NCBI GenBank assembly: GCA_015521535.1
Contig: WAOA01000018.1
Coordinates: forward strand, 1 to 26,236
From: Candidatus Aenigmatarchaeota archaeon
GTDB lineage: Archaea; Aenigmatarchaeota; Aenigmatarchaeia; Aenigmatarchaeales; SZUA-1535
Direction: 5' to 3'
Length of the DNA: 26,236 nt
Shown piece after piece: positions 1,903 through 25,700 of this stretch. Under the pieces are notes generated by a model that saw nothing but the letters and a program-made list of their open reading frames with translations, did no database searches and was not told the DNA's origin. Position 1 is the stretch's first letter. Each line of letters begins with the position of its first letter. The position numbers were made by a program, and so were the translations under genes.

Positions 1903-2586
1903 ATGTTATTTATAATGACCAAAACGATTATAGAATGCAAGAACATATGGAAAATTTATAAAGAAGGTAGAGTCCAAGCCCTGTGCGGAGTTTCACTGAA
2001 AATAAGAAAGGGTGAAACTCTCGCTATTCTCGGTCCTTCAGGTTCGGGTAAAAGCACGCTTATGCATATACTCGGTTGTTTGGATAGGCCGAGCAAGGGA
2101 AAGGTTTTAATAAAGGGAAGGGATGTTTCAAAATTAAGCGATGATGAACTCGCTAAAATAAGAGCAAAAACCATAGGATTTGTTTTTCAATTCTTCTACC
2201 TTGTTCCTTATCTTACCGCTTTAGAAAACGTTATGCTTCCGATGATTTTCGTTGGCGAAAAAAACACTGAAAAATGCAAAGAACTGCTTAAAATTGTAGG
2301 TTTGGAAAAAAGAGCAAACCACTTGCCAATGCAACTTTCTGGCGGTGAAAGACAGCGCGTAGCGATAGCGCGCGCACTTGCGAATAATCCAGAGATAATA
2401 CTTGCAGACGAACCAACCGGCAATTTAGACAGCAAAACAGGAGAAGAAATAATTAAACTCTTGTTAGATTTGAATAAGAAACACGGAAAAACCGTAGTTG
2501 TGGTAACGCACGATTCGCAACTCGCGAAAAGGATGAAAAGAATAATACATATAAAAGATGGAAAGATAATAAAAGCGGGTGGATAG
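1903..2586 (+). CDS. ABC transporter ATP-binding protein, LolD/FtsE/MacB (type VII) family
   Basis: Walker A GPSGSGKST, signature LSGGERQRVAIARAL, Walker B ILADEPTGNLD, H-loop VVTHD. The start could be the ATG at 1915. Confidence 0.93.
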   Translation: MLFIMTKTIIECKNIWKIYKEGRVQALCGVSLKIRKGETLAILGPSGSGKSTLMHILGCLDRPSKGKVLIKGRDVSKLSDDELAKIRAKTIGFVFQFFYLVPYLTALENVMLPMIFVGEKNTEKCKELLKIVGLEKRANHLPMQLSGGERQRVAIARALANNPEIILADEPTGNLDSKTGEEIIKLLLDLNKKHGKTVVVVTHDSQLAKRMKRIIHIKDGKIIKAGG

Positions 2587-2587
2587 T

Positions 2588-3700
2588 ATGAGAAAAATCG
2601 CGTTCATTTATATGGTTTTGTTTCTTACAACTATAACTTATGTAAACTCCGCTTCATACGGCGGGCTTGTGCTTTCGTATACATTAGAAAAGGATTTTTA
2701 CAGACCCGGAGAAAGTGGAGAAGTGTTTTTAACAATTTCTAATCCAACTTCTTATCCGCTTGGAAGCATGGACGTTGAAATCTCGGCGGACGGTTTCTTA
2801 AATGTAAAGGAGGGAACTTTTTCTCTTGACAATTTACCAGCAGGTGCTATGCAGCAAATTGGAATTGTTTTTGAAGTTAATTCTTCTGCTTTACCGGAAA
2901 TCTCTTACATAAAAGTTCACGTAAAATATAAGGATTACAACGATAATCAAAAGGAAAACGACCTTATAATTCCGATAAAAATTTTAAACGAACCGATACT
3001 CAAAGTTTATGCTTCTAAAATACCGGAATTAAAAATAGGTAAATCGGAAAAAATTTGTTTCAACGTGATCAATTACGGAGGTGAGAGTAAGGATATTACT
3101 TTAGCGTTGAGTTCTGAGCAATTTTCAATTTCTCCGCCTGAAAAGTTTTTGAAATCTTTAAAAGGTAGTACCGAGGTGTGTTTTGATATAACTCCTATAA
3201 CCACGAACACAGGAAATTATCCTTTAGAGATGACACTAACTTATAGAGACGCGCTTTACGAAAGTACTTATACGGATACTTTCACATTCTGGGTAAACCT
3301 TTCCGGAAAGGTAGAACTTAAGGTTTATACAGAAAGTTATTCCGAAAAGGAAAACGCGATAAATATAGTGTTTTCAAATTCCGGAAATGAAAATATAAAG
3401 GCGCTTTACGTAATTCTCTCTTCGGATATAGAAATTTCTCCGAATGAAATATACATAGGCGATTTGGACAGAGATGACTATGATTCCGAAAAGGTTTTCC
3501 TTTCACCAGTACAAGGAGAGCATGTAATAAATATTACAGCAAAATTTAGAGATACGTTTGAAAGAGAATACGAAAAAACATACTCGGTCACCGTTATGAT
3601 TCCGGAAAAGAAAAGTGAAAATAATACTAACTACTTTTACTTTCTTATTATTCTAATAGGTATTTTTGCATTTATCTATTTTAAGAAGAAAGTAAAATAA
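2588..3700 (+). CDS. Secreted, C-terminally anchored S-layer-domain-like protein (COG1361-like, tandem Ig/CARDB-type folds)
   Basis: Signal peptide MRKIAFIYMVLFLTTITYVNS; repeated beta-sandwich units (PGESGEVFLTISN, FNVINYGGE, IVFSNSGNE); C-terminal TM plus KKKVK; sits between ABC ATPase and permease. Confidence 0.68.
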   Translation: MRKIAFIYMVLFLTTITYVNSASYGGLVLSYTLEKDFYRPGESGEVFLTISNPTSYPLGSMDVEISADGFLNVKEGTFSLDNLPAGAMQQIGIVFEVNSSALPEISYIKVHVKYKDYNDNQKENDLIIPIKILNEPILKVYASKIPELKIGKSEKICFNVINYGGESKDITLALSSEQFSISPPEKFLKSLKGSTEVCFDITPITTNTGNYPLEMTLTYRDALYESTYTDTFTFWVNLSGKVELKVYTESYSEKENAINIVFSNSGNENIKALYVILSSDIEISPNEIYIGDLDRDDYDSEKVFLSPVQGEHVINITAKFRDTFEREYEKTYSVTVMIPEKKSENNTNYFYFLIILIGIFAFIYFKKKVK

Positions 3701-3708
3701 GTGGTAAA

Positions 3709-4944
3709 ATGATTTTAGAAATTGTTTCGTTATCTCTGAAACATCTTATGCATAGAAAGTTAAGAACTTTTTTAACGGTTCTTGGTGTTGTTATAGGTGT
3801 TGCTGCAATTACAGGCATGGTATCTGCTACGCAGGCTATTAGTAATGTTATCACAGAAGAGATAGAGAAATTTCAGGTTAACGTTATAGAAGTAATACCT
3901 GGTGAGTTTAAACTCGGTTTTTCGTTGTTCGGAGGAGAGACTATGAAAGCAACTCTGACAGAAAAAGACGCTGATATTATAAGAAGTATAGGCGGTGTAG
4001 ATGTTGTTTCTGCAGGTATTTACAGATATGGTGAAATCTCCAAGGGTAAAGAAAGATATTACCTCAATATCATGGGTATAGATGAATATTTCGATGAGAT
4101 AAATACCATAGGTATTTATAAAGGTAGATACCCGAGAAAGGGAAAAGAAGTCCTTGTAGGTTATTCTGTAGCATACGATTTATTCGATAAACCTTTAGCG
4201 GTTAAAGAAAAAATAACTATTGAAGGGGAAGAGTTTAAAATAGTAGGGATAATGAATAAAGCAGGTGGGCTTTTTAAAAGCATAGATTCAATGGTATACA
4301 TTCCGAAAGAAACGCTTAGAGAATTAAAGGATATTGATAAAAATACGGTAGATTTGATAGATATTAAGGTTAAGGATAATGTCGATCCGGAAATAGTGGC
4401 GAAGGAAATTGAATATAAACTCGCAAAGGCTCATAAGGTTTCTGTGGATGAAAAAGATTTCACGATTTTTTCACCCGAGTTTTCAAAAAAGATAGCATCG
4501 CAAATCACTGGAATACTTCAAATACTTTTAGGGAGCATAGCGAGTATTTCCTTTCTTATCGGCGCGATAGGAATAGCGAATATGATGTTCACTTCTGTTC
4601 TCGAAAGGACGAGAGAAATAGGTATTTTAAAGGCAATCGGTGCAACTGATAGACAAATAATGATGATGTTTTTGATAGAATCCGGGATAATAGGGTTAAT
4701 AGGCGGTATAATAGGGATATTTTTCGGCTATGGCTTAGGACAGGGATTCTTGATACTAAGGCAGTATATGCTTTCTAAGATAAGTATGTTCGAAACCGTA
4801 GTACAAGCACCGAGTATAGAAATAAATTTCGGATTATCGGTAACCGCCTTGTTTGTGTCTTTCATAATAGGAATTTTAGCAGGATTGATTCCTGCAAGAA
4901 AGGCAGCAAAATTGCCGCCTGTTGAAGCACTGCGCTACGAATGA
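3709..4944 (+). CDS. ABC transporter permease, MacB/FtsX family
   Basis: HRKLRTFLTVLGVVIGVAAI first TM, large extracellular domain, then IGIANMMFTSVLERTREIGILKAIGA and PARKAAKLPPVEALRYE. Confidence 0.92.
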   Translation: MILEIVSLSLKHLMHRKLRTFLTVLGVVIGVAAITGMVSATQAISNVITEEIEKFQVNVIEVIPGEFKLGFSLFGGETMKATLTEKDADIIRSIGGVDVVSAGIYRYGEISKGKERYYLNIMGIDEYFDEINTIGIYKGRYPRKGKEVLVGYSVAYDLFDKPLAVKEKITIEGEEFKIVGIMNKAGGLFKSIDSMVYIPKETLRELKDIDKNTVDLIDIKVKDNVDPEIVAKEIEYKLAKAHKVSVDEKDFTIFSPEFSKKIASQITGILQILLGSIASISFLIGAIGIANMMFTSVLERTREIGILKAIGATDRQIMMMFLIESGIIGLIGGIIGIFFGYGLGQGFLILRQYMLSKISMFETVVQAPSIEINFGLSVTALFVSFIIGILAGLIPARKAAKLPPVEALRYE

Positions 4945-7560: not shown

Positions 7561-7582
7561 CCTCTTAATCCCTGTATTGTGT

Positions 7583-9274
7583 ATGAGGATTTATCTTGCG
7601 GTGTTCATAACTTTCCTGTTTATGCTTCCGTCGGCAAGCGCAGATGTAATAGTAAATTCTCAGGACTGGAGAGATGTTTATCTTGTAATGCTTTACGCCA
7701 AATTCAAGGGAGATGATGTTCATTATATTCTGAATTTAGGTGAAACGGATATACTTCTCAAGACGTTAACAAAAAATGAAACCCATATAATTTTCGAGAG
7801 CGCAAAAAAACCTGTTATAAAAAATCTTAAACAATTCTTGCGAAATTACGGTTTTTCAATAGTCTCGGAATCTGTATTCAACGACTACAACGACTTACAG
7901 ATTTCACTTTATAACGAGATAAAGGATAAAATAAAAGGCTTTGTAGTAATAAATCCTGATTTTGGATACGACGCCATTTCCGTATTTCCGCTCGCGGTTA
8001 CCGAGAACAGATGGGTGCTCTTCTATAACAAAAATTACGAGACAAGGATAATAAATCTTTTGAAAAACGAGGTAAAAAAGGATGTTGTGTTCTACGGCGA
8101 ATTTCTTTCTCAACCGTGGAAGAAAATTCCGAATTTCTATGAAATAATCTATGAACCGCCGTTCGAAAGAAATAAAATAATAGTTGAAAGAGTCTGGAAT
8201 AAGGTTAACGGCTGGATTTCATTATCGGACGGACAATATATAGAAAAAGGCTTTCTTCTCCAGGGAAAGCCCATACTTCTTATAAGGGATTCTCCGCAAG
8301 CGATCACGGATTTTCTTAAAAAACTCAAAGTAAAGGTAGTTGAAATAATAGGCCCTGAGAATGTTGATTTCGGATATCAGATAAGAGACCTTTCTAACAG
8401 AACCATAGGCGTGGTTGCAAAAATAGGAAGAACTTTTACAGGCGATCCAGAACTGAGAGGAAAGTTCTACACGCTTCCGGAAAAGTCTGTAGATATAGAG
8501 ATACATGACCTGCGGTTAGAAAAAATCCTATGGAATAATAGGGAAGTGATTTTGGTGCTGAAAAATTACGGGAATGTAAAAGAATTCTTTAAAATAAGCG
8601 CGTTACGACTCATAGGGAAGGAGGAATATCCTGTTACAGACGATAAACTTCATGTTATCAAACCGGGGGAAACCGTTTCAATACCTTTTTACGGAAATTT
8701 CTCCTCTTTGAGAGAAGGTGAGGTTTTTATAGTATACGGAAGTGAAAAATTAGTTTTCAGAGTTAAGAACCAAACCACAGGAAAATACTTCTTTTCAACA
8801 CAGTTTTATCCCGCTCCTGAACTTAAAAAACCTGAAGTTGAGGGTATATTTTATGACGATACCATTGAAAAACTCTGGATAAAGATCAGAAATCCTAATA
8901 ATCAACCTTTGTGGATTAGAGCGGAAGTCCATAATTTTACTTTCCTCAACAAAAGCATAATACTTTCTTCTCCAACGGTAAAAATACAAGAAGAAGGTTA
9001 TATACCTATTTCGGTGTATATGGGTAGGGAAGATATAGATGTCAATAAGAATCTAACTGTATTGATATTCTACGGTGAAAATGAAGATATTCTATCTGAA
9101 ATATATATATATTCTCAAAAAAAACCTATTAAACCTCAAAGAATAGATAATACCTTATTTATAATAGTTATAGTAACGGCAGTATTTGTTTTTATAGTAA
9201 TCGTTTTAATTTTTACCAAAAAAGGTATTATCTCCTTGGAATTCCTTAAAAATATTTATATAAGAAAAAAATAA
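7583..9274 (+). CDS. Membrane-anchored surface protein with three degenerate cell-wall-binding-2 (CWB2)-like repeats and two Ig-like domains; paralog of 16064-17770
   Basis: Signal peptide; NSQDWRDVYLVMLYA, DFGYDAISVFPLAVTENRWVLF, KPILLIRDSPQAITDFLKKLKVKVVEIIGP; C-terminal TM plus basic tail. Confidence 0.65.
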   Translation: MRIYLAVFITFLFMLPSASADVIVNSQDWRDVYLVMLYAKFKGDDVHYILNLGETDILLKTLTKNETHIIFESAKKPVIKNLKQFLRNYGFSIVSESVFNDYNDLQISLYNEIKDKIKGFVVINPDFGYDAISVFPLAVTENRWVLFYNKNYETRIINLLKNEVKKDVVFYGEFLSQPWKKIPNFYEIIYEPPFERNKIIVERVWNKVNGWISLSDGQYIEKGFLLQGKPILLIRDSPQAITDFLKKLKVKVVEIIGPENVDFGYQIRDLSNRTIGVVAKIGRTFTGDPELRGKFYTLPEKSVDIEIHDLRLEKILWNNREVILVLKNYGNVKEFFKISALRLIGKEEYPVTDDKLHVIKPGETVSIPFYGNFSSLREGEVFIVYGSEKLVFRVKNQTTGKYFFSTQFYPAPELKKPEVEGIFYDDTIEKLWIKIRNPNNQPLWIRAEVHNFTFLNKSIILSSPTVKIQEEGYIPISVYMGREDIDVNKNLTVLIFYGENEDILSEIYIYSQKKPIKPQRIDNTLFIIVIVTAVFVFIVIVLIFTKKGIISLEFLKNIYIRKK

Positions 9275-9330: not shown

Positions 9331-10986
9331 ATGGTTCTGCTCAAAAATATAAGTGTGAAAAAAAGAAATCTGCTTTGGATTATAGGTATAGTAGGAATAG
9401 TTATTAGTATAGCGTATGCTCAGAACATTAGCGTTAAAGCAGGGTATATTACAAAAGCGAATCTTTATTCTGAAATCTCTACATGGAGATGGGGGGGGAT
9501 AATAGGGTATGTAACCCCAGGTACGCTTCCCGAATCTCCGGATCCTTTTCTTCAGCATAGTATAACAGCGGGAGTAATAGATATGATAAACGTCTCGGCA
9601 TCAAATCTCAAAGACGGCAAACACTATTTTGCCGCACTACCTTATGACACCGCTCTCACTATAAATGTGAGTAAGATGCGGAATATTACAGAGAATGATT
9701 TAGAAGAATTCGGAATTTTCAACGCCACCAATTTTCCGATATTTCATCCGAACTATTATCAGAACAGCGATAACCCGAAAACCACTTTTTGTTGTTATAA
9801 TGAAACGATTCTGATTTCTGGCAAGCCCTTTACGGCTTTCAGGATAGTGCTTAAAAATAATGTGAGATACTATCTCTTGAAATACCAGTTTAACGACTCT
9901 TATGCTCTTCCTCTTTTCCTTGTAAATATCTCCGATTATACATGCTACGACTCCACTACATGTCAGTTCGAATTCATGCTTCCTGCAGATAAAACTTATC
10001 AACTGTATGTGCTTTCGAAAGAGCCGGCGTATGACATAAAAGTTTTCGTAGATGGGGTGGAAACTACTGATATACCGAATACGGGATTACCTTATAATAT
10101 TACTACGGTAGTGTACGATATATATACACAAATACCTGTACCTAACAAGACTATTGTAGTATTCGAAGATAACGGTAATAATATATTTTCACCTTTACCG
10201 ATTATTTCGACCACATCAAGAGTTATGGCTTATACCGAATCCGACTCTAAAGGCAGGGTACAGTTTATAATATCTCCTACACCTACATTTCAAGAAGCAG
10301 GAATTTATTCATTAAAAGTAGGTATCTTGAGCACTAAAGATATAATCACAAATCAAAAAACGCTAAACATTCTGGATATGGAACTTAAAGGCGGTAAAAA
10401 ATATATATCGCCTACAGAACTTTTGGACAATTCGAAAGCCACGGTAGTTTACATGATACAGTTAGAGGATAGTGTGTATAACTGGGCTCAGCAGAGAAAG
10501 GCTAACAAGTATACAATTTTTGTCGACACTTCCGGAAGTTACACTATAAGAAATGAGTCGGACGGATTATATTATTCATCAGCATCCATACAAACAGGCG
10601 CAGTGAATTATATCAGCGTAATACTTCGCTCCGGCGGGGTGGATGTTCCGGGATATGTTGTACCAGAAGAAACAGCAGGATTTATAGTAATGAATCCCAC
10701 TTATAATCCGCCTGTCGTCGGTCCTAAAAACCACACCCATAAAGTTTTTTATATCCCGACAGGTACAGGATTTGTTATAGCGCCTACAAAAATGGGTCCT
10801 GCAAACAGCGAGGTAAAGTTATATGTGTATGATTCAAATTATTATCTCGTTGCCACGATACCTTTATACATAGATAAATCCACAACTATTACAGGCAATG
10901 CTGTATTTTACCAAAACGATGACATGCAGGCAAAGATAGTAAAAACCATACAGGTGATAAACACTCTGTACTACGCCTATTGGTGA
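9331..10986 (+). CDS. Secreted protein: N-terminal domain A (homologous to 18211) plus domain B (homologous to the C-terminus of 10991); putative adaptor/base subunit
   Basis: Signal peptide to AYA|Q; SVKAGYITKANLYSEISTWRWGGIIG aligns with TVQAGYIRLANVSTEMSTYHWAGIYG; no TM anchor. ORF is confident, function is inferred. Confidence 0.6.
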   Translation: MVLLKNISVKKRNLLWIIGIVGIVISIAYAQNISVKAGYITKANLYSEISTWRWGGIIGYVTPGTLPESPDPFLQHSITAGVIDMINVSASNLKDGKHYFAALPYDTALTINVSKMRNITENDLEEFGIFNATNFPIFHPNYYQNSDNPKTTFCCYNETILISGKPFTAFRIVLKNNVRYYLLKYQFNDSYALPLFLVNISDYTCYDSTTCQFEFMLPADKTYQLYVLSKEPAYDIKVFVDGVETTDIPNTGLPYNITTVVYDIYTQIPVPNKTIVVFEDNGNNIFSPLPIISTTSRVMAYTESDSKGRVQFIISPTPTFQEAGIYSLKVGILSTKDIITNQKTLNILDMELKGGKKYISPTELLDNSKATVVYMIQLEDSVYNWAQQRKANKYTIFVDTSGSYTIRNESDGLYYSSASIQTGAVNYISVILRSGGVDVPGYVVPEETAGFIVMNPTYNPPVVGPKNHTHKVFYIPTGTGFVIAPTKMGPANSEVKLYVYDSNYYLVATIPLYIDKSTTITGNAVFYQNDDMQAKIVKTIQVINTLYYAYW

Positions 10987-10990
10987 TGAA

Positions 10991-12793
10991 ATGAAGAAAG
11001 AGATATATTTAATATATTTCATTGTACTATCTGCGTTTTTAATAACCCCTGTTTTAGGAGTCACGGCAAGCATAAAAGATTCAAGTTTCAATACCGTAAA
11101 TCTTTACTATACCGGCTCTTCTTCTTCTGATCCTGGTCAGTATTATTTTGATGGCGTACCGAGCAAAGGAAATCCTAATGTAGGCATAGAACTTTGCGAT
11201 GCTGGGCAGGCATATGTTGGCGCTGCGTACGCTATAAATGTAGGCGGTAGTTGGCAATACGCTTTAATAACGTACGCCTCATCTTCAGAAGCACTTTCAT
11301 ATACTTCACAATCCGGCTCTGCAGCAGGCTGTTACTTTACACCAATAGATTTCCTTACCTTCAGCCCGTATCTTTACACAACCCCGAATCCGGATGTTTA
11401 CGTTGCTGCTTTTCCCGGAAGGCTTTACGTTGCCTATGAGACAAGCGCTAATCCCGGGACGCTGAGTAATTTTGTGTTTGTCGGAAACAACGGCTATCTT
11501 CGTGGCAGTTATACCGTGCCCAGAAGCTTCGATGAAAGCACATGTACAATAAGCATCTCTGAACCCACAATTTCCTTTCAGTATTACGGCGGTAGTTTTT
11601 CTGCCGGAGCGAGCGACTCCAATGTAGGAATTTCTAATGAGAGAAGAATGGTAATAGGTGTTTGTACAGACGATCAAGGAAGTGCCTGCAATGACGGAAC
11701 AGTTCTAAGCTCTGCTACATTTCCTTTGACACTCGGTACAGGGCTCACGGGCTCGCCGTGTGTTAATGATCAAGCCACACCTATAGATAGATATGTGGTG
11801 ATAAACGGTCTCGGAAACTATATCTGCATAGGCCCCAACCTTAAAGTTTCGATAACACAACTTTCTCCGAATCCTGTGTATTATAACCAGACTCTGACCA
11901 TAAGTTACAGAATCACAAACCCGAGAGATACGCCTTACGAGACGCAGGGAGGGAATGTAAGGGTCACGACGGATTTTACGGTTAGAGTTTCGATTTTCAA
12001 CGCTTCAAATCCCTCGCAGATCGTGTATGAAAATGTAGAAACCATAACGGATGACATTCCTGTCAACGGTGCTGTTGACAGAACTCTCTACTGGCGCGCC
12101 GCTGTACACAGCGGAACGTATACGGTAAAAGTAGAAGTTGATTACGGCTCTGCAATAGGAGAGTGTAACGAAGGTGATAATTCAGCACAACAGAATTTCG
12201 AAGTTAAACCTGTTGTAATTCCGGAAATATGGATAAACGGAAATAAAACAGATACCTTTCCCTATCCCGGCAGACCTTACAACTTCTCGCTCTATCTGAG
12301 AAATTCCGACAACGAAACCTTGAGAAACGCTTATGTAAAAATTGTGGAAAAGAACGGACTCTCGCTTTTCACACCCACGCAGATATGGGATAAGATTCAC
12401 GACCAATACGGAAACAAAACAAAAAATGCAACAATAGTTACTTCTATAACAGAAGTTTACACAGATTATTACGGATGGGTTAATATTACTTTAATTCCCA
12501 CCGGCAATAGATTATTCGCTCCTGAATATGCCTATACAAACGCTTCGCAGGTACTCGGAAACTATTCTTTATACCTTACAGGAAGATATCTCAAAGGTAA
12601 TATATGGGAAGATTTCAAATTCGTTATAAACGATCAACTTCTTGACAACTACCCTCTCAACATCCAAAATCCGTATACATACAAAGGTTACGATAAAGAA
12701 ATCGCATTCCATAATCAGAAAAACTTTGTCGAGGTAGTTATGGATTTCGTTTACACAGTATTCGCAAATTTCTGGAAAGCGATTGTAAAGTGA
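10991..12793 (+). CDS. Secreted protein: domain C + CARDB + domain B; putative adaptor
   Basis: Signal peptide; CARDB-like PNLKVSITQLSPNPVYYNQTLTISYRITN...YTVKVEVDYGSAIGECNEGDN; SD GGTGA; N- and C-terminal domains shared with 12800 and 9331 respectively. Confidence 0.6.
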   Translation: MKKEIYLIYFIVLSAFLITPVLGVTASIKDSSFNTVNLYYTGSSSSDPGQYYFDGVPSKGNPNVGIELCDAGQAYVGAAYAINVGGSWQYALITYASSSEALSYTSQSGSAAGCYFTPIDFLTFSPYLYTTPNPDVYVAAFPGRLYVAYETSANPGTLSNFVFVGNNGYLRGSYTVPRSFDESTCTISISEPTISFQYYGGSFSAGASDSNVGISNERRMVIGVCTDDQGSACNDGTVLSSATFPLTLGTGLTGSPCVNDQATPIDRYVVINGLGNYICIGPNLKVSITQLSPNPVYYNQTLTISYRITNPRDTPYETQGGNVRVTTDFTVRVSIFNASNPSQIVYENVETITDDIPVNGAVDRTLYWRAAVHSGTYTVKVEVDYGSAIGECNEGDNSAQQNFEVKPVVIPEIWINGNKTDTFPYPGRPYNFSLYLRNSDNETLRNAYVKIVEKNGLSLFTPTQIWDKIHDQYGNKTKNATIVTSITEVYTDYYGWVNITLIPTGNRLFAPEYAYTNASQVLGNYSLYLTGRYLKGNIWEDFKFVINDQLLDNYPLNIQNPYTYKGYDKEIAFHNQKNFVEVVMDFVYTVFANFWKAIVK

Positions 12794-12799
12794 TGGGAA

Positions 12800-15121
12800 A
12801 TGAAAAAATATATTTTAATGGCTGGAATAATGCTACTTGTAATAAATGTCTCCGTAGCCATGACGGTAAATCTTACGGACTATTACGGCAATGCCACATC
12901 GCTTTTATACGATTACGATAACGTTACGCAATACACTTCATGGTCGTATAAAGATTCTTCTTTAAGAAATCCGAATGTGTTTATGAGGCTGTGTAATCTT
13001 ACAAACGATTTCTACAACGTTTTTCTTGACTTAAGATATGCTACAGAATCAGGAAACCTTTCGGAATCATTGCTTTCTCTTCTACCTCTCGTCAATCTCA
13101 CGAATCTTTCCTCTTCATGTAAGTTTATAGATATAGATATCTCTAGCTTCAAAGCCCTTTATCCAGCATATCCGTTTTTCTATCTTCTGAATTCTTCAGC
13201 GAATTCAAGCGTTATCGCGAAATTTAAACTTTCAGAAAGTTTCAACGGCTCCTACAAGGTGGGAATAGATGTAGATAATGTGGATAAAATTACCTATATT
13301 ACTATAACCGAAATATACGATGATAGGGGAAGATTGATCAATACTTCGTATCCAAAACTTTACATTACAATTTTAAAAAACAATACTCCTGTTGCTGAAG
13401 GAAAAACTGCTCCCAGATCGCCTTTGCCGTTCAATTACACTTTTGTTGATGAAGAAGAAATATATGTAAACGGAATTCTTTCGCTGAAAGTAAAAACCTT
13501 CGAGCCGTGCGGAGTTATAAACGAATCCGGGTATTATATCCTGAACGCTTCTGCATGGAATGTTAACGATACCTGTATAGTAATAGAAAATATTTCAAAT
13601 ACGTTTCTTAATTTTGCAAATCTCACCATTGATGGTGATTACAGCGTAAACGGCTCTTTGCGTGAAGATGTCTGCGGCATACTGATAAGAAATTCGGAAA
13701 ACGTTTCTATCTATGATATGCGCGTCGAACATTTCGGAAGAGGTGTATGCGTAAAAAATTCTCGTGGAGTAAAAATTTACGGAACACATGCAAGCGAGAA
13801 TCTTAAAGGCATTTATCTTGAAAACTCCTCAGTGGAAATTTCAAATATAAAGTTGAACACGGTTAAAGAAGAAATCTTTGCAACCAAGAATTCCTATGTA
13901 AAGGTTAATCGGGTGGAACTTCCAGAAGAAACCAAAGTTTCTTTTGAAGCATCTGACATAGCGCTACGAGACGTTCCTGATCCGCCTCCCGATAGAGAAG
14001 GTTACAAAAACATAAAACAATTCGCTAATATCAGCAAAACCGAAGGCGATGCATGGGTTTATAAAATAACATTTCACTATACGTATCCGCTGCCTAACAA
14101 TGTCACGCATGTAGTTTACATCACAAAAGTAGACGGAATATATCTTAACGGAACATGGGCAAATCTTACATATCAAGATTTTCAAGCAAATAAACAGGAT
14201 TTTTCGGATAAAACCGGAAAAATTACTCACGGTTATGCATGGATAGAAGAAAATTTCACGGATTTCTCTATTTTCATACCTTACGGTTTGAACATAACGG
14301 CTCCGCAACCGGTTCCGCAGCCTCAACCGAGGCCGACTCCAACACCATCTCGGATAATAGGCAAGGTTGAAGAAATAGTACCGCCGAATCTTAATTTAAC
14401 CTTACATACATATGAAATAACAATCCAACAGGGAGAAATTAAAGAAATAGGTTTTAATCTATCAAATGAAGGAGATGTAGATGTATACAATGCCGTGGTT
14501 CTCGCTTTGGTTAGAAAGGGCTGGCTAACCGCAGGTGTAAATTTCGATGTGGTTAGAGCAGGAGAAACGAAAATAAGTAAGTTTTACCTTAAAGTATATG
14601 AAAATGAGATTCCGGGAGTATATTATATACCTGTAAAGGCTATACTCAAAGAAAACAATGTTACGGTAGATGTTGAGATATTAAAAGTAAGGGTTGTACC
14701 GAGACAGAGGATTGCTAAAATAGATATTCTGGAAATTCTCCCGTATCTTTCTTTACCCGAGCATTCCAAGGTACCCATCTCGGTTTTGGTAGAAAACACA
14801 GGAGATTATGATCTCCAAAATATTAGACTTTCTATAGAAGGTGCGGAAAAATGTATAGAAAAAATCGAAGGTAAGTATGATCTCAAAAGAGGTGAAAAGA
14901 AAAGTTTGACGTTTATCGTTTATACGAAAAATGCAGGGAATAAATGCACAGGTGTATACGTCTTCAGATCAAAAGAAGGAATAGTCGGAATGTATCCGGT
15001 AATAATAAAGATAAGACCGAAGACGCTGGTAGAGATAATAAAAATATTCCCGATAATATACATTATATGGACGCTCTTCACGATATATATAATTTACAGG
15101 AGGTTGAAAAAACGTGGCTGA
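12800..15121 (+). CDS. Membrane-anchored surface protein: domain C, right-handed beta-helix (NosD/pectin-lyase-like), PGF-pre-PGF-like domain, Pro-rich linker, two NEW3/CARDB-like domains, C-terminal TM
   Basis: PCGVINESGYYILN...GILIRNSENVSIYD..VEHFGRGVCVKNS; APQPVPQPQPRPTPTPS; FNLSNEGDVD and VLVENTGDYDL; TM IFPIIYIIWTLFTIYII plus RRLKKRG. Confidence 0.7.
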   Translation: MKKYILMAGIMLLVINVSVAMTVNLTDYYGNATSLLYDYDNVTQYTSWSYKDSSLRNPNVFMRLCNLTNDFYNVFLDLRYATESGNLSESLLSLLPLVNLTNLSSSCKFIDIDISSFKALYPAYPFFYLLNSSANSSVIAKFKLSESFNGSYKVGIDVDNVDKITYITITEIYDDRGRLINTSYPKLYITILKNNTPVAEGKTAPRSPLPFNYTFVDEEEIYVNGILSLKVKTFEPCGVINESGYYILNASAWNVNDTCIVIENISNTFLNFANLTIDGDYSVNGSLREDVCGILIRNSENVSIYDMRVEHFGRGVCVKNSRGVKIYGTHASENLKGIYLENSSVEISNIKLNTVKEEIFATKNSYVKVNRVELPEETKVSFEASDIALRDVPDPPPDREGYKNIKQFANISKTEGDAWVYKITFHYTYPLPNNVTHVVYITKVDGIYLNGTWANLTYQDFQANKQDFSDKTGKITHGYAWIEENFTDFSIFIPYGLNITAPQPVPQPQPRPTPTPSRIIGKVEEIVPPNLNLTLHTYEITIQQGEIKEIGFNLSNEGDVDVYNAVVLALVRKGWLTAGVNFDVVRAGETKISKFYLKVYENEIPGVYYIPVKAILKENNVTVDVEILKVRVVPRQRIAKIDILEILPYLSLPEHSKVPISVLVENTGDYDLQNIRLSIEGAEKCIEKIEGKYDLKRGEKKSLTFIVYTKNAGNKCTGVYVFRSKEGIVGMYPVIIKIRPKTLVEIIKIFPIIYIIWTLFTIYIIYRRLKKRG
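14300..14350 (+). repeat. Pro/Gln/Thr low-complexity linker (in-frame)
   Basis: Encodes APQPVPQPQPRPTPTPS; imperfect CCG-CAA/CAG/ACT codon repeats. Confidence 0.7.
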
Positions 15122-16063: not shown

Positions 16064-17770
16064 TTATCTCTTGTAGCGATATCTGTAATGTTTCGGCTTT
16101 CTTTTAGAGAGTATGAATAGTATCACTATACCTATACCTACAATCACAGGAATTATTAATATCATCGGAATTCCAGAAGCAACTTCTACCGGAAGCGTTA
16201 CCACGGCTGATTTTACAACAGCATCTTTCCTTTCTCCGTAATCCGCTTCTATTTTTATCTTAGAATTTTCCTGAATATCTATTTCATCAAGTTCGGCAGG
16301 AATATATATTTCCTTTACTTCTCCCGGTTTAAGTTCTACAATACCCGAACTCAAAGAATCAGTAATGCCTTTAATTTTAACATCGAGGAGTTTTATTATA
16401 ACAACCGCCTTAACATCGCCTATATTTTTAACCTTAATACCGAATCTTTTAGAGCCCTTATAGTATTTCGCTTCGAGAATCTCTATCTTCGATCGATCCT
16501 TTATTTCAGAGATTTTTAATGGTAGTGAAAACGGCGGGCCAAACTTGCCTGCCTGCGTTAGATACGAATCAAGGTTTTTCGGAGATTCACCGTATGAGGT
16601 ATAGAACTCTACTGTTATATTTCCTGTCAACTCGGTAAGAAAAACATCGTAACTTCGCCATACGCTTTCACCCGCTCCTATGAAAACCGCTTCGCTATCT
16701 CCGCCACTCGCAATTTCTTGACCGTTTTTCAGAACTCTGAAAGTGGTGAACTCGTACACCCCTGTTTGCCCTTCATTCGAAAACTGGATCATTAACTTTT
16801 TGTTTTCAGGATCGTAAACCGCTGAAAGTATGTTTAATTTTAATTCGAGCTTCGGGAGGGGAAACATAGAAAGAGCGTAAATCTGACCGCTTATTCCAGG
16901 TGTGGATTGACCGAATTTTATGAACACGGATACTTTTTTGTTGGTCTTTTCTCTTATTCTTTCTCCGACATAAGTGAGTTGCGGGCCTATTGCTATTACC
17001 GTTTTTATTCCGTTCGAGTTTATAAAATCGAGAACTTCGTCAGGAAGTAGATTTGTTCCCACAAGAAGAACGGGAGAAGCGCCTTTAAGAATTTCAAGTT
17101 CTATATAATTTCCTTCCGTGATAATCGCCTGTGAAGTTTTTTTCACTTTAAGGAACTCTTCACCCAGTTTAGCGCTTATTTCAAATTTTGAGTTTCCTGT
17201 TATTCTTTTATCGAAGTACTGGGAAATTGTATTTTCTATGGATCTTTTGAAATTACCTATTCCTACTACTTTCTGAGCGTTTGCAAGCATACTTGCTATG
17301 TCGTTTGCATTGTTATCGTTAACTATTAAGACCCATGCTCTGTTTGCCATTGCAAGCGCTCCTGCAGGAAGAGAGAGATAGGGAAAATCTTCTTCCACAA
17401 CGTAATAAGAATTTGCTTCTTCCGGCTTGAGGTCTCTGTAAGAATTCGTTACGGTGATTTTTTGTACTATATTATAACCGCGCAATCTTATCTGGCTTTC
17501 GAGATTCGGAATGTATCTGTCGCCGGATTCTATAAGAATTACGGGCTGCTTAGGAAGAACGTTAAAAAGTCCTGCAGGATTAGGAGAATTCGCGAAATAC
17601 ACAGGATAGTTGTTGTAATTCGCGTAAAGCACGCCGTAATAAACATCTTTCCAGTCCTTGGAATTTATCACAACAACTTCTCCGTGAACAACAGGGAGAA
17701 GCATAAAAAAGACTCCGATAGAAACTACAAGGTATCGGTATGAATTTCTCGTGCCTAGTTTCGTCATCAC
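16064..17770 (-). CDS. Membrane-anchored surface protein with three CWB2-like repeats and two Ig-like domains; paralog of 7583-9274
   Basis: NSKDWKDVYYGVLYA, DFPYLSLPAGALAMANRAWVLIV, KRITGNSKFEISAKLGEEF, PVLLVGTNLLPDEVLDFINSNGIKTVIAIGP; C-terminal TM plus KRKPK. TATA TTTATAAA at 17800-17793. Confidence 0.68.
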   Translation of the reverse strand: MMTKLGTRNSYRYLVVSIGVFFMLLPVVHGEVVVINSKDWKDVYYGVLYANYNNYPVYFANSPNPAGLFNVLPKQPVILIESGDRYIPNLESQIRLRGYNIVQKITVTNSYRDLKPEEANSYYVVEEDFPYLSLPAGALAMANRAWVLIVNDNNANDIASMLANAQKVVGIGNFKRSIENTISQYFDKRITGNSKFEISAKLGEEFLKVKKTSQAIITEGNYIELEILKGASPVLLVGTNLLPDEVLDFINSNGIKTVIAIGPQLTYVGERIREKTNKKVSVFIKFGQSTPGISGQIYALSMFPLPKLELKLNILSAVYDPENKKLMIQFSNEGQTGVYEFTTFRVLKNGQEIASGGDSEAVFIGAGESVWRSYDVFLTELTGNITVEFYTSYGESPKNLDSYLTQAGKFGPPFSLPLKISEIKDRSKIEILEAKYYKGSKRFGIKVKNIGDVKAVVIIKLLDVKIKGITDSLSSGIVELKPGEVKEIYIPAELDEIDIQENSKIKIEADYGERKDAVVKSAVVTLPVEVASGIPMILIIPVIVGIGIVILFILSKRKPKHYRYRYKR

Positions 17771-18210: not shown

Positions 18211-18918
18211 ATGAAAGACGCATTTTTGAAGATTTGGGTAGCAATAACATCGTTTCTAGTAGCGGCAGTTCCGATAGCAATGGCAGCAACTCCGGGGCCT
18301 GCAGAAGTAACAGATATAGCGCAAAAAGGACCGTACTCATATACACCCACAACTCCGTCAACAACAGTCCAAGCAGGTTATATCAGATTAGCGAATGTCT
18401 CTACTGAGATGTCAACATATCACTGGGCAGGTATCTACGGTAATGCATCAGGTACGCTTGTATTGGGAGATGCTTCAGGTAGTAAAATGTATACCTGGAC
18501 GGCGACAGCAACTTATGTTTTCTTCGATGACGATAATACAATAAACTGGGGTACGATTGATAACGCCACATGTACAGATATAGGAACCAGTTTCAGTTTT
18601 ATAGCAGATTCCACGGGCGCTAGCGATAGTTGTTCTAATACATTTACCAATTCAGGTCCTACAAACTTCAAGTCAATAGGAAATGTGTTGAGCACGGCTT
18701 ACGCATTAACATACGACAACACCCAAACTCCAACTTGGAAGACATATGCCGTAAAAGATACCACACAGGGAGATGTATTCTTTGCAGCAGAAACAATTAC
18801 CACACCGGGAACTGCTTTTGATGGTTCACCCGCAAACTATCAAGCAATACTACCAGAAAACGGCGAGAATGCAGATACAACAACCCAGACATACTATATA
18901 TGGATAGAACTATTCTAA
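18211..18918 (+). CDS. Secreted 235-aa Thr-rich stand-alone domain A protein; candidate major structural subunit (filament or lattice)
   Basis: Sec-type signal MKDAFLKIWVAITSFLVAAVPIAMA; QAGYIRLANV, WAGIYGN.SGTLVLGD.SG..MY.W, AFDG...YQAILP, YYIWIELF; monocistronic with own promoter and terminator; ACA/GCA-biased codons unlike its neighbours. Confidence 0.7.
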   Translation: MKDAFLKIWVAITSFLVAAVPIAMAATPGPAEVTDIAQKGPYSYTPTTPSTTVQAGYIRLANVSTEMSTYHWAGIYGNASGTLVLGDASGSKMYTWTATATYVFFDDDNTINWGTIDNATCTDIGTSFSFIADSTGASDSCSNTFTNSGPTNFKSIGNVLSTAYALTYDNTQTPTWKTYAVKDTTQGDVFFAAETITTPGTAFDGSPANYQAILPENGENADTTTQTYYIWIELF

Positions 18919-22742: not shown

Positions 22743-25700
22743 TTATTTAACTTCCATGAAGATTTTTATCAAATCGTTTGTTCCTTTAAGATCTCTTAAT
22801 AATGCAGGAATTCTTGCTTCGTAATCATATGTTCCGTAAGTTCCCTGAGCGTCGGAATTAATTTTTGTGATGAATATCAAATCCTGTGTACCATTATACT
22901 CTGTTCCTCCGTCACCGGAATCCCATAAAATACCTGTGATGAAATTACCGTTATTACTGTCTGTTGAATTTATCACGGGGACATCGCAAACCGTACGCGA
23001 GCCTATTTCAAAGCACGCTGTAGTATCTGCTACACCATCGTTGTTTTTATCGTAAAGCGCTTCTACCGAATCACTGAATCCTGTCATGTTAAGGGCCTGA
23101 TCAGCCTCGGTAAAATCATTTGTGCCGTTAAGCGGCATTAAATCAGCGAAAGCGTAATCCGAGTCGTAATCAGCAAAGTATAAATTACCTTGCTGCGTCA
23201 TCGGAATCCATACACTAAAGTTATTTCCTGCACTGTCTTTTATAGCTATCCATCCGTTTGTATGTCCGTAATAAATCGCCCATCCGCTCACATTGTAAGT
23301 AGTGCTGTTAAAGTTATTACTTTCATTCGTTTCGGATATCGTGTTTGCGGGATCTACAGTAACAGAGAAATTCCATGTTCCAGGTTTTGCAATCCATGTA
23401 AAGTTCACGAGTTCATAGGTGTTTGCAGTTATGTTAACCACGCTCTCGTTTGTTTGCTTAAGTATCCATACGGTTCCGTTAAAGCTGTAAATATCGAGTT
23501 GTACTGTTACATTTGTGGCATCTACACCGGCTTCTTCAGAGACATTTGCCGTAATCATCAGTACTTGATTTTCTACAATATTTTCCTGTGAAATATTGAA
23601 CATTATATTGTTCGCAACTAAATCAGGTTGCGTGCTCGCTCCAGTGAATGCTTCAAAACTCGTGACGTTAAACCAGATATGCGTGGCATTTTCTCCGTAA
23701 CCTTCAAGATTTGCAGGATCTATGAACTCCCATTGCGAACAATTTGCATTAACAAAGTCCCATGCTATGCAGTGGAGCACATTCTGAACGGTTACACCGT
23801 TTTTCGGAATAACAAGTTTTGCCTTTTCAAAAGCCAAACCTGTATCGTTTAGCGCGTATATTGGAGTGATAGCAGAAACGTTGCTCGGTAAAAAGCCCGC
23901 ATAGTTTTCAACGACCTGCTCTTCTATTTTTAAGTTCATTTTAGAAATATTTAGATTATAAATTCTTGATCCCAATCCGTCACTTACAGGCGTAAAACTC
24001 TTATAGGTATAATTTTCGTAAATTTCTAAAGATGCCGTAATGCTTCCGTATCCGCTTGCCACAAGATTATTATTTTTATCGTAAATTTCTATCCGTGTAT
24101 TAGGATTCACGTGATAACTTGAATTGTATGAATTTACAACTATAGGCGTGGAGATATTCCAGGTAATGTTTATATTATATACTTCAGGTCCGTTCAGTGC
24201 TGTTTTGGTAAACAAACCTATTTTCACGTATATGGAATCCGAAGTAATTCCGGAGAGATCACAGTTCGAAGGTGAAGATGTACAGTTAACGAGGAATACA
24301 TTATTCCAGTTATAAACTTCATAGGTGATATTTCCGTTATTAAGTATATGATCCGCGGAGAATTTTTCCCATTTACCGAGTTTAAGCGGTTTAATGAGAA
24401 TTGTTTTTACCCACGCATTATGCTTTCTGCTTTCTTCAACTTCTTCGAAAACTTTATCCACATAACCCTGTTTTCTTATTTCAGCCGAGAGATTCGTTCT
24501 AAAGTAGTAATAAAATCCGCAGGTCGCAGGGTCAGCGTTAACCTTACTGTTAACCTGCGGAGTTACCGTAAATGAAGTTTTTCCTCTGATATCTTGGCTA
24601 ACATCCTTTGGCCATGTGCTTATATGGGTTAGTGTACACCCGTCTATTCCAGGCGAGTAAACCCCGTAACACGAACCTTCTACCGTGACGTTAAATCTCT
24701 CGTATGTTTCTCCTGCAGCACAGGTAGTATTATCTGCATACGAACCGCCAAAGCCGAGATCGCCCGCTGCTTCTAAGTCGACACTACCTGAGTAAAACTC
24801 GTATCCGGCAGGTGCGTTGAACGCCATCGGACAACTACCGCCTGTAGTAGAGCCGGAACATGTCTGGCTCGCGGAATAAGAATCGAAAACACTACTTGAG
24901 TTGCTTTCGCTTTCCACAAGCATGTTTCCGTAATACATGTAAACCGTTGTATTGCCTGCGCTTATTTCAGGCAGTCTTATCCAGATTTTTGTTTGTGTGG
25001 TATTACAATTACCTTCTAAGTAGTACGGAATCTCTTTTTCTTCACCGTTAGTCATATTTATCCATGTAAATCTAATATCTTTACACGTAGAATTCATTTT
25101 ACTCGCGGATATTAAATTCTGTGTATCGACAGTAAGATTAACCTGGAAATCGGTTAGTGTTTGAGAATTGTTTATTATCATGGGTTTTCTGTAAAGATAA
25201 CATTTTCCTTCGATATACCAACAGAAATCTATACTTAATTTATTACTAACACTAGCATTTTCACTCTGATTTATTCCGGATTTTGTTGCAAAATAATCTT
25301 GCCATAGCGTTGCGTTTACAGTAAAACTTATGCTGCTCCATCCTATCCTTCCCGCGGTGTCATTGGCATAAACATAAAGTTCATTTGTTCCTGGCTTTGC
25401 TGCTATGCTTGTGTTTGGTGTGAACGTTTCATTCGCCTTACCGTTTATCGAGAACCACCATGTATCAATTGGTTTATTCGAAACAACTTCCAAAGGTATG
25501 TAGTTTGTAGTGCTATAAGTCTTTGATTGAGGTGAGAGTATATCTATGACAGGAGCCGTAGTAGATATTCTCACACTTCTTAATCCACTCGCGCTCCAAT
25601 GGTTATAGGAATCGTTAGCATATACGCGATAATAGTAAGTTCCGTCATTTAAGTCTGTCACATTAAACCAGAAACTTCTCGATGTTAATGTGTTCATAGT

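Follow-up and report, generated by a model that had tools for sequence, protein, structure and literature searches.

By what means does a secreted surface protein that has no membrane anchor of its own stay on an archaeal cell, and could modules that recur from one gene to the next be part of the answer? The question is raised by three adjacent genes in a 26,236-nucleotide stretch of DNA, hereafter the window (positions 1 to 26,236 of contig WAOA01000018.1, assembly GCA_015521535.1, from a Candidatus Aenigmatarchaeota archaeon). Their products are called P0002, P0003 and P0004 (window genes 9331, 10991 and 12800), and P2, P3 and P4 denote their families in other loci. The first-pass annotation of this DNA had described domains shared in series across the three genes and had proposed from this a physical linker running from a polymer of the A domain to the membrane. 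The serial sharing is borne out by comparison of family profiles and reaches one link further than had been claimed, through the A domain to a small protein encoded at 18211 and to a giant CARDB protein. The reading put forward here is that P0002, P0003 and P0004 form a single membrane-tethered surface assembly with P0004 as its anchor, a tentative proposal whose chances are judged to fall a little short of even.

The three genes are co-directional (+) with intergenic gaps of 4 nt and then 6 nt, and each product begins with a Sec-type signal. P0002 (551 residues, 9331..10986 (+), called as an open reading frame with its translation and having 28 homologues) consists of the signal at residues 1-29, the A domain and two units of a B domain plus helix, and lacks a membrane anchor, its sole hydrophobic segment being N-terminal. 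P0003 (600 residues, 10991..12793 (+)), which starts 4 nt past the P0002 stop, likewise has no anchor and runs from the Sec signal through a domain C and a CARDB domain to B' with its helix. P0004 (773 residues, 12800..15121 (+)) carries, after its Sec signal, the domain C', a beta-helix-like region, a Pro/Thr-rich linker, two immunoglobulin-like (Ig-like) domains, a C-terminal transmembrane helix (residues 746-764) and a basic tail. A scan for hydrophobic segments finds a second one in P0004 alone of the three, and so the earlier statement that this is the only member of the trio with a transmembrane segment is upheld. N-X-S/T sequons number 13 in P0002, 10 in P0003 and 31 in P0004. The three are Sec-secreted surface proteins, rich in beta-sandwiches and probably N-glycosylated.

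Homology of the B modules becomes apparent at the level of family profiles. Homologues were gathered for each protein (56 for P0003, 18 for P0004 and 28 for P0002) and aligned per family, and the profiles were compared with hhalign. Pairwise BLASTP of B against B' in the window gives 22% identity and an expectation value (E) of 0.077, which is not significant alone, but hhalign joins the two at a probability of 97.8% (E 8.9e-13) for the whole proteins and 99.0% (E 3.3e-18) for the domains by themselves, and thus B of P0002 (residues 233-350, 10027-10380) is homologous to B' of P0003 (residues 409-560, 12215-12670), as had been claimed. The repeating element is larger than the domain first described. 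Unit 1 of P0002 (10027..10506 (+)) consists of the beta-sandwich B at residues 233-352 and a helix h1 at residues 353-392, and is followed by its internal tandem duplicate, unit 2 (10507..10983 (+)), made of a diverged B2 (residues 393-525) and a C-terminal helix (residues 526-551). The B' unit of P0003 (12206..12790 (+)) is a beta-sandwich at residues 406-560 with a C-terminal amphipathic helix, modelled at residues 576-599. This whole unit aligns with unit 1 of P0002 over 150 columns (E 2.6e-17), and unit 1 with unit 2 over 146 columns (98.5%, E 1.7e-15); within P0002 the sandwiches B and B2 match at 96.1% (E 3.2e-9) and helix h1 matches the C-terminal helix at 96.8% (E 2.4e-10). By itself the P0003 tail helix has no significant match to the P0002 helices (2-8%) and aligns with them only within the whole unit. 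The module is therefore a sandwich-plus-helix unit of about 160 residues present three times over two genes, so that the sharing of B between P0002 and P0003 stands and the two copies first counted become three, each with a trailing helix.

This relationship is selective. A profile built from the P3 B' and tail alone finds window positions 10030-10503, that is the P0002 B, at E 4.3e-6 in its own genome, and per genome matches exactly two genes, P3 plus either P2 or the giant protein described below. B is thus no generic spacer spread across numerous proteins, and by the same search the idea of B plus helix as a general C-terminal anchor of many proteins is ruled out. As a control the P0002 and P0004 families were compared, giving an hhalign probability of 0.7%, with nothing found by pairwise BLASTP between the two in the window, and about 60 other domain pairs reach at most 21%, apart from those with the second B copy of P0002 and the pair of Ig domains in P0004 (57%). 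A faint match of residues 406-600 of P0003 to the macroglobulin-type (MG) family PF17789 MG4 (E 0.06), together with one orthologue that has a precomputed MG4 match, is the trace of a named family seen for B.

The paralogy of domain C in P0003 (residues 24-282, 11060..11836 (+)) and C' in P0004 (residues 21-232, 12860..13495 (+)) is again invisible to pairwise BLASTP in the window (22% identity, E 0.37, not significant alone) and seen with profiles. With signal peptides included hhalign gives 94.7% (E 6.1e-8), without them 87.7% (E 3.4e-6), and independently re-aligned domains give 67.7-74.6% (E 3-5e-5). Mature C and C' domains of relatives find one another directly by BLASTP at E 3.7e-9 over 253 residues and at 7e-9, and cross-family matches of the hidden Markov models (HMMs) recur in further loci. 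In a decoy experiment with the P3 C-domain HMM, made without the signal peptide, 14 of the 17 real C' domains outrank all 357 shuffled or reversed decoys, the window's own C' scoring 14.9 bits against 8.7 for the best decoy. A permissive alignment spans the whole domain and places the INGL motif of C opposite VNGI of C', with a Cys-containing extra insertion of some 35 residues in C of P0003 relative to C'. Two cysteines had been picked out as conserved between the domains and this holds, since they align in the family profiles, C69 and C114 of P0003, a predicted disulfide pair, being at least 90% conserved and C65 and C107 of P0004 invariant. Homology of C (P0003 residues 24-280) and C' (P0004 residues 21-233), as first proposed, thus rests on probabilities of 68-95% and E values from 5e-5 to 6e-8. 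Checked on the translations, the motifs and coordinates given in the first-pass annotation are exact; the annotation had named pairwise and profile alignment as the check on both modules, and it is the profile alignments that are significant, whereas the pairwise ones of B and of C in the window are not. Out of 1.84 billion representatives the C profile picks up just 68 clusters, and in almost every case these are P3 orthologues whose C domain follows immediately on the signal peptide.

The A domain supplies the link upstream of B. In P0002 it covers residues 30-232 (9418..10026 (+)), and its homology extends over the whole of the mature 18211 protein, family P6, its comparison with a five-sequence P6 alignment giving 97.8% and E 9.2e-13 over 171 columns, and the P2 HMM matches P6 at E 2.7e-9. 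Giant CARDB proteins have a conserved C-terminal part of 260 residues with the motif YG.YDYE.R.P (22743-23522 (-) in the window, with further such C-termini in loci L019, L023 and L025). This C-terminus aligns with the 18211 protein from its residue 63 on (93.4%, E 2.4e-7) and is without the N-terminal segment that P0002 and the 18211 protein have in common. From the A, B and C homologies taken together the sharing pattern is therefore giant or 18211 protein to P0002 by A, P0002 to P0003 by B, and P0003 to the transmembrane protein P0004 by C. In a distant locus (L024:14329-16842) three tandem paralogues of the 18211-type A protein, of 221-225 residues, lie downstream of P4. Searches of Pfam with the A-domain proteins and with P0007, at an E limit of 10, gave nothing relevant, and P0002 has no Pfam family at E<=1.

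Confident fold models are available for the middle protein. AlphaFold2 with the 56-sequence alignment predicts P0003 as all-beta plus the C-terminal helix at residues 576-599, with a predicted local distance difference test value (pLDDT) of 94.1 and a predicted template-modelling score (pTM) of 0.78; modelled alone, domain C reaches pLDDT 96.9 and pTM 0.93 and is formed of two packed sandwich lobes. Foldseek searches with domain C gave best matches at E 5.5e-3 in the PDB and E 3.6e-3 among AlphaFold DB clusters, at template-modelling scores below 0.3, and fold searches with the whole chain returned only generic multi-Ig proteins at about 0.2. CARDB plus B' superposes loosely, with low scores, on the paired C-terminal barrels of transglutaminase and on the MG domains of complement (C3/C5). 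The CARDB domain itself (residues 283-405, 11837..12205 (+)) adopts the beta-sandwich known from the solved CARDB structure, and although PF07705 scores 22.6 bits on P0003, just under the cut-off of 22.7, the orthologue in genome G006 scores 56.7 bits and many orthologues have a precomputed PF07705 match. CARDB stands apart from the shared modules, with hhalign probabilities of 0.5% against B and 0.2% against C. For all three families profile searches against PDB sequences gave CARDB only, and A, B and C have no covering family in Pfam, NCBIfam or PDB sequences. Judged by sequence, only the P0003 middle domain belongs to a named family, that of PF1109 of Pyrococcus furiosus (PF07705; PDB 3idu), and B plus helix and C are two domain families unnamed in current libraries. 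In the literature on surface proteins of DPANN archaea and Nanoarchaeota no description of these families was found. A metagenomic P3 variant, P0150 (760 residues), continues after C and CARDB with weak similarity to MAM (E 1.6e-5, its 25.3 bits falling just short of the 26.4 cut-off), and therefore the region after CARDB can accept other modules.

At all 10 other loci examined the gene order P2-P3-P4 is unchanged, among them those of two genomes of the same genus (G003 and G001), six diverse loci of metagenomes or metagenome-assembled genomes (MAGs), and one in a genome of another family. At the six diverse loci the proteins show 30-50% identity and the gaps between genes range from -10 to 55 nt. 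The fixed gene order in every locus examined therefore supports a function common to the trio. Conservation is even along all domains, mean pairwise identity lying at 34-51% with no hypervariable head, a pattern that components of a structure would be expected to show. In species representatives the trio turns up rarely and patchily, in 4 of 42 genomes of the order and 6 of 371 of the phylum. MAGs with homologues are labelled Nanoarchaeota, Woesearchaeota or Aenigmatarchaeota in their source databases, which makes the source of the window an archaeon of DPANN type. C-profile scores are 356-357 bits in G156 and G227, which belong to other families of the same class, and 259 bits in one genome of the same genus; such higher scores across families than within the genus suggest lateral transfer of the cluster, or else binning errors in the MAGs.

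A genome of a different family, G006 (90% complete), is the informative variant. P3 and P4 are present and the P2 position, directly upstream of them, is taken by a giant protein (L015:10827-17999 (-)). Counted from the earliest start codon in the locus it is at least 2313 residues long, and the reading frame around it is free of stops for 6379 residues. It is made of right-handed beta-helix repeats (Beta_helix/NosD ten times, Beta_helix at E 5e-108), and over its last 300 or so residues it is collinear with the complete P0002 cassette B-h1-B2 (P2 HMM, E 4.5e-21). No A-type protein was found in G006 with P0006 as the query. The B cassette and not the A domain therefore stays next to P3-P4, and is able to carry a very different payload. 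Indirect as it is, this fusion is the best argument of its kind that the cassette is a docking end. Like the fixed gene order, it supports a function common to the trio.

Given these observations, a route to the proposed assembly can be outlined. The three proteins would have arisen long ago as two modules restricted to the lineage were duplicated and shuffled, the modules being the B sandwich plus helix of about 160 residues (twice in P0002 and once in P0003) and the two-lobed N-terminal C of about 210-260 residues (in P0003 and P0004). One tightly packed transcription unit would yield all three, and the products would most likely assemble in one cell-surface structure, which P0004 would tether to the membrane via its sole transmembrane helix and on which the anchorless P0003 and P0002 would be held. 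The B-helix-B-helix cassette that ends P0002 may serve as a portable docking end, bearing the A domain here and the giant beta-helix in G006. That the proteins touch, and where they do so, is inferred, and several points weigh against it. Synteny and co-occurrence indicate shared function and not contact. The profiles are shallow, with an effective number of sequences of about 3.5, and the probability that joins C to C' ranges from 68 to 95% depending on the alignment. The argument from G006 is that of one lineage and one query, and when RNA runs were looked for by a sequencing-run search only DNA runs of hydrothermal-vent metagenomes came up.

The sharing may instead record history and nothing else, P0002, P0003 and P0004 being independent surface proteins, for instance separate adhesins or the carriers of enzymes, that have modules in common through duplication or recombination of neighbouring genes. 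Tandem duplication and domain shuffling are common among adjacent genes for surface proteins, beta-sandwich modules are frequent spacers, and complex prediction for P0002 residues 30-551 with P0003 residues 283-600 yielded no evidence of binding (ipSAE interface score 0.15 against a mark of 0.32, in a single run without controls, a result that weighs neither for nor against contact). Such a history would leave P0002 and P0003 without an anchor, and sits uneasily with a trio never split in 10 other loci despite 30-50% sequence divergence, with a B module confined to two neighbours per genome, and with a giant in G006 that has gained exactly the B cassette at exactly the P2 position; for these reasons it is thought rather unlikely. 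The opposite extreme is a strict linear linker, a sub-case of the assembly in which A pairs with A, B with B' and C with C' from a distal fibre or adhesin down to the membrane, as the first-pass annotation had it. Every consecutive pair of proteins does have exactly one common module, the chain does end at the only transmembrane protein, and paralogues descended from a self-associating ancestor frequently stay partners; the G006 giant, itself bearing the B cassette in a genome where the query used brought up no A protein, looks as if a link had been skipped. Against so orderly a chain, three B units would fit a 2+1 arrangement, or packing within P0002, equally well, and the Ig-like sandwich, which is the fold of B and also of the C-terminal lobe of C, frequently acts as a passive spacer. 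Since B occurs three times and always with a helix, one-to-one pairing is not the sole possible geometry, and the strict chain is considered an unlikely form for the assembly to take.

An assembly of the envelope itself can also be envisaged, in which P0004 would be a stalk like SlaB and P0002 with P0003 the outer canopy of a surface-layer (S-layer) type lattice, and not an attachment device. In its favour are adjacent genes for anchorless beta-rich secreted proteins and for a beta-sandwich protein with a C-terminal transmembrane helix, as in SlaA and SlaB (PMC10903991), many sequons, and even conservation without a variable head; no known S-layer family is found in these genes, and elsewhere in the 70%-complete genome, on another contig, there is one sub-threshold S_layer_N match. 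A trio in 6 of 371 genomes of the phylum, more alike between families than within the genus, would be odd for a core envelope, and P0004 has a Pro/Thr-rich linker with no coiled coil apparent in its sequence, so that a lattice of this type seems very unlikely. At the other end of ambition the locus might encode a novel archaeal surface organelle in which three modules of self type each form one link, A between a fibre or giant adhesin and P0002, B plus helix between P0002 and P0003, and C, with its new fold, between P0003 and P0004, and payloads are exchanged by moving the docking cassette, as in the G006 giant, an elaboration of the assembly to which a low probability is given.

Conserved operons for multi-protein cell-surface complexes are a known kind of thing, and comparison with them is instructive. 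In the Csc/WxL clusters of Lactobacillales and Bacillales, for which a non-covalent surface complex was proposed, an operon of Sec-secreted proteins only has a C-terminal module common to small and large members and one anchored member (Siezen et al. 2006, PMC1534035). An operon of only Sec-secreted surface proteins including one anchored member is also found here (signal peptides on P0001 to P0004, the transmembrane helix in P0004), but two different modules are serially shared where in Csc/WxL one is common to all members. Peptidoglycan is the known ligand of WxL, and the archaeal host here is without peptidoglycan. No WxL match was found on the B and tail fragments at E<=5, nor DUF916 or DUF3324 on P0004, P0001 or P0007, and CARDB is all that Pfam reports for P0003. 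The two-component S-layer of Sulfolobales offers a different precedent, an anchorless beta-rich protein being held by a partner with N-terminal beta-sandwiches and a C-terminal transmembrane helix, both with heavy N-glycosylation (Gambelli et al. 2024, PMC10903991). P0004, with its beta-sandwich domains and C-terminal transmembrane helix, adjoins the anchorless beta-rich P0002 and P0003 in the same manner. No sequence relationship to SlaA or SlaB was found in Pfam, PDB-sequence and NCBIfam profile searches, and SlaB trimerises via a long coiled coil. Here there are three proteins, and their distribution is rare and patchy. To our knowledge SlaA and SlaB have no paralogous module in common. In chaperone-usher pili the adaptors FimF and FimG link the FimA rod to FimH by donor-strand complementation, for which chaperone and usher are required. 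There too homologous modules in series, encoded by adjacent genes, connect a polymer to a functional end; in the chain proposed here there would be three module types with one link each, ending at a transmembrane protein, and Pfam families of chaperone and usher are absent from the window reading frames scanned. The locus is a member of none of Csc/WxL, SlaA/SlaB or the pilus adaptor chains and resembles them in logic.

The remainder of P0004 and its neighbourhood can be described more briefly. Residues 233-395 (13496..13984 (+)) are tentatively a NosD or right-handed beta-helix-like region (PF05048, E 1.5e-4, 21.7 bits against a cut-off of 23.6), and the Ig region has weak NEW3/CARDB-like matches. 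Overlapping the P0004 stop by 8 nt is the gene of a small protein, P0005 (15114..15368 (+)), charged in its N-terminal part and with a transmembrane segment at the C-terminus, and a gene for a small tail-anchored transmembrane protein adjoins P4 in every one of the seven loci checked and shares its strand in six. At L021:14045-14323 (-) the P0005-type gene is inverted and joined to a 151-residue/P7 unit, so that the coupling of the P0005-type protein to P4 is not strict. On either side of the operon, at 7577-9274 (+) and 16064-17770 (-), lie two diverged paralogues (28% identity, E 2e-25), both of which combine a signal peptide and a conserved motif near the N-terminus, NS.DW.DVY, with a strong transmembrane segment at the C-terminus; the pair also flanks L021, and neither member matched a Pfam or NCBIfam family. 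Further away, at 1903-4944 (+), is a MacB-type ATP-binding cassette (ABC) exporter, the ATPase gene preceding that of a MacB_PCD/FtsX permease and a gene for a 373-residue CARDB-like protein being inserted between them. Frequent neighbours of trio loci are anchored proteins of the P1/P7 type, A-type small proteins, giant CARDB proteins and a MoxR-DUF58-VWA trio. The window flanks carry the archaeal information genes Rpb4/RpoF, DUF655 and KsgA, the source genome amounts to 422 kb in 42 contigs and is 70% complete, and the window sequence is nearly identical to DNA in hydrothermal-vent metagenomes, as a sequencing-run search revealed.

Overall the trio is a compact, strictly conserved set. It contains a 260-residue domain to which no solved or predicted structure comes close, and also a portable cassette of docking type. 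DPANN archaea live attached to other cells and the proteins of their contact structures are largely unknown. Should the organelle reading, improbable as it is, prove true, it would explain, in concrete and testable terms, how the attachment apparatus of some DPANN cells is kept in place, and with the trio in hand a few experiments on recombinant proteins could reveal how anchorless surface proteins stay on an archaeal membrane.

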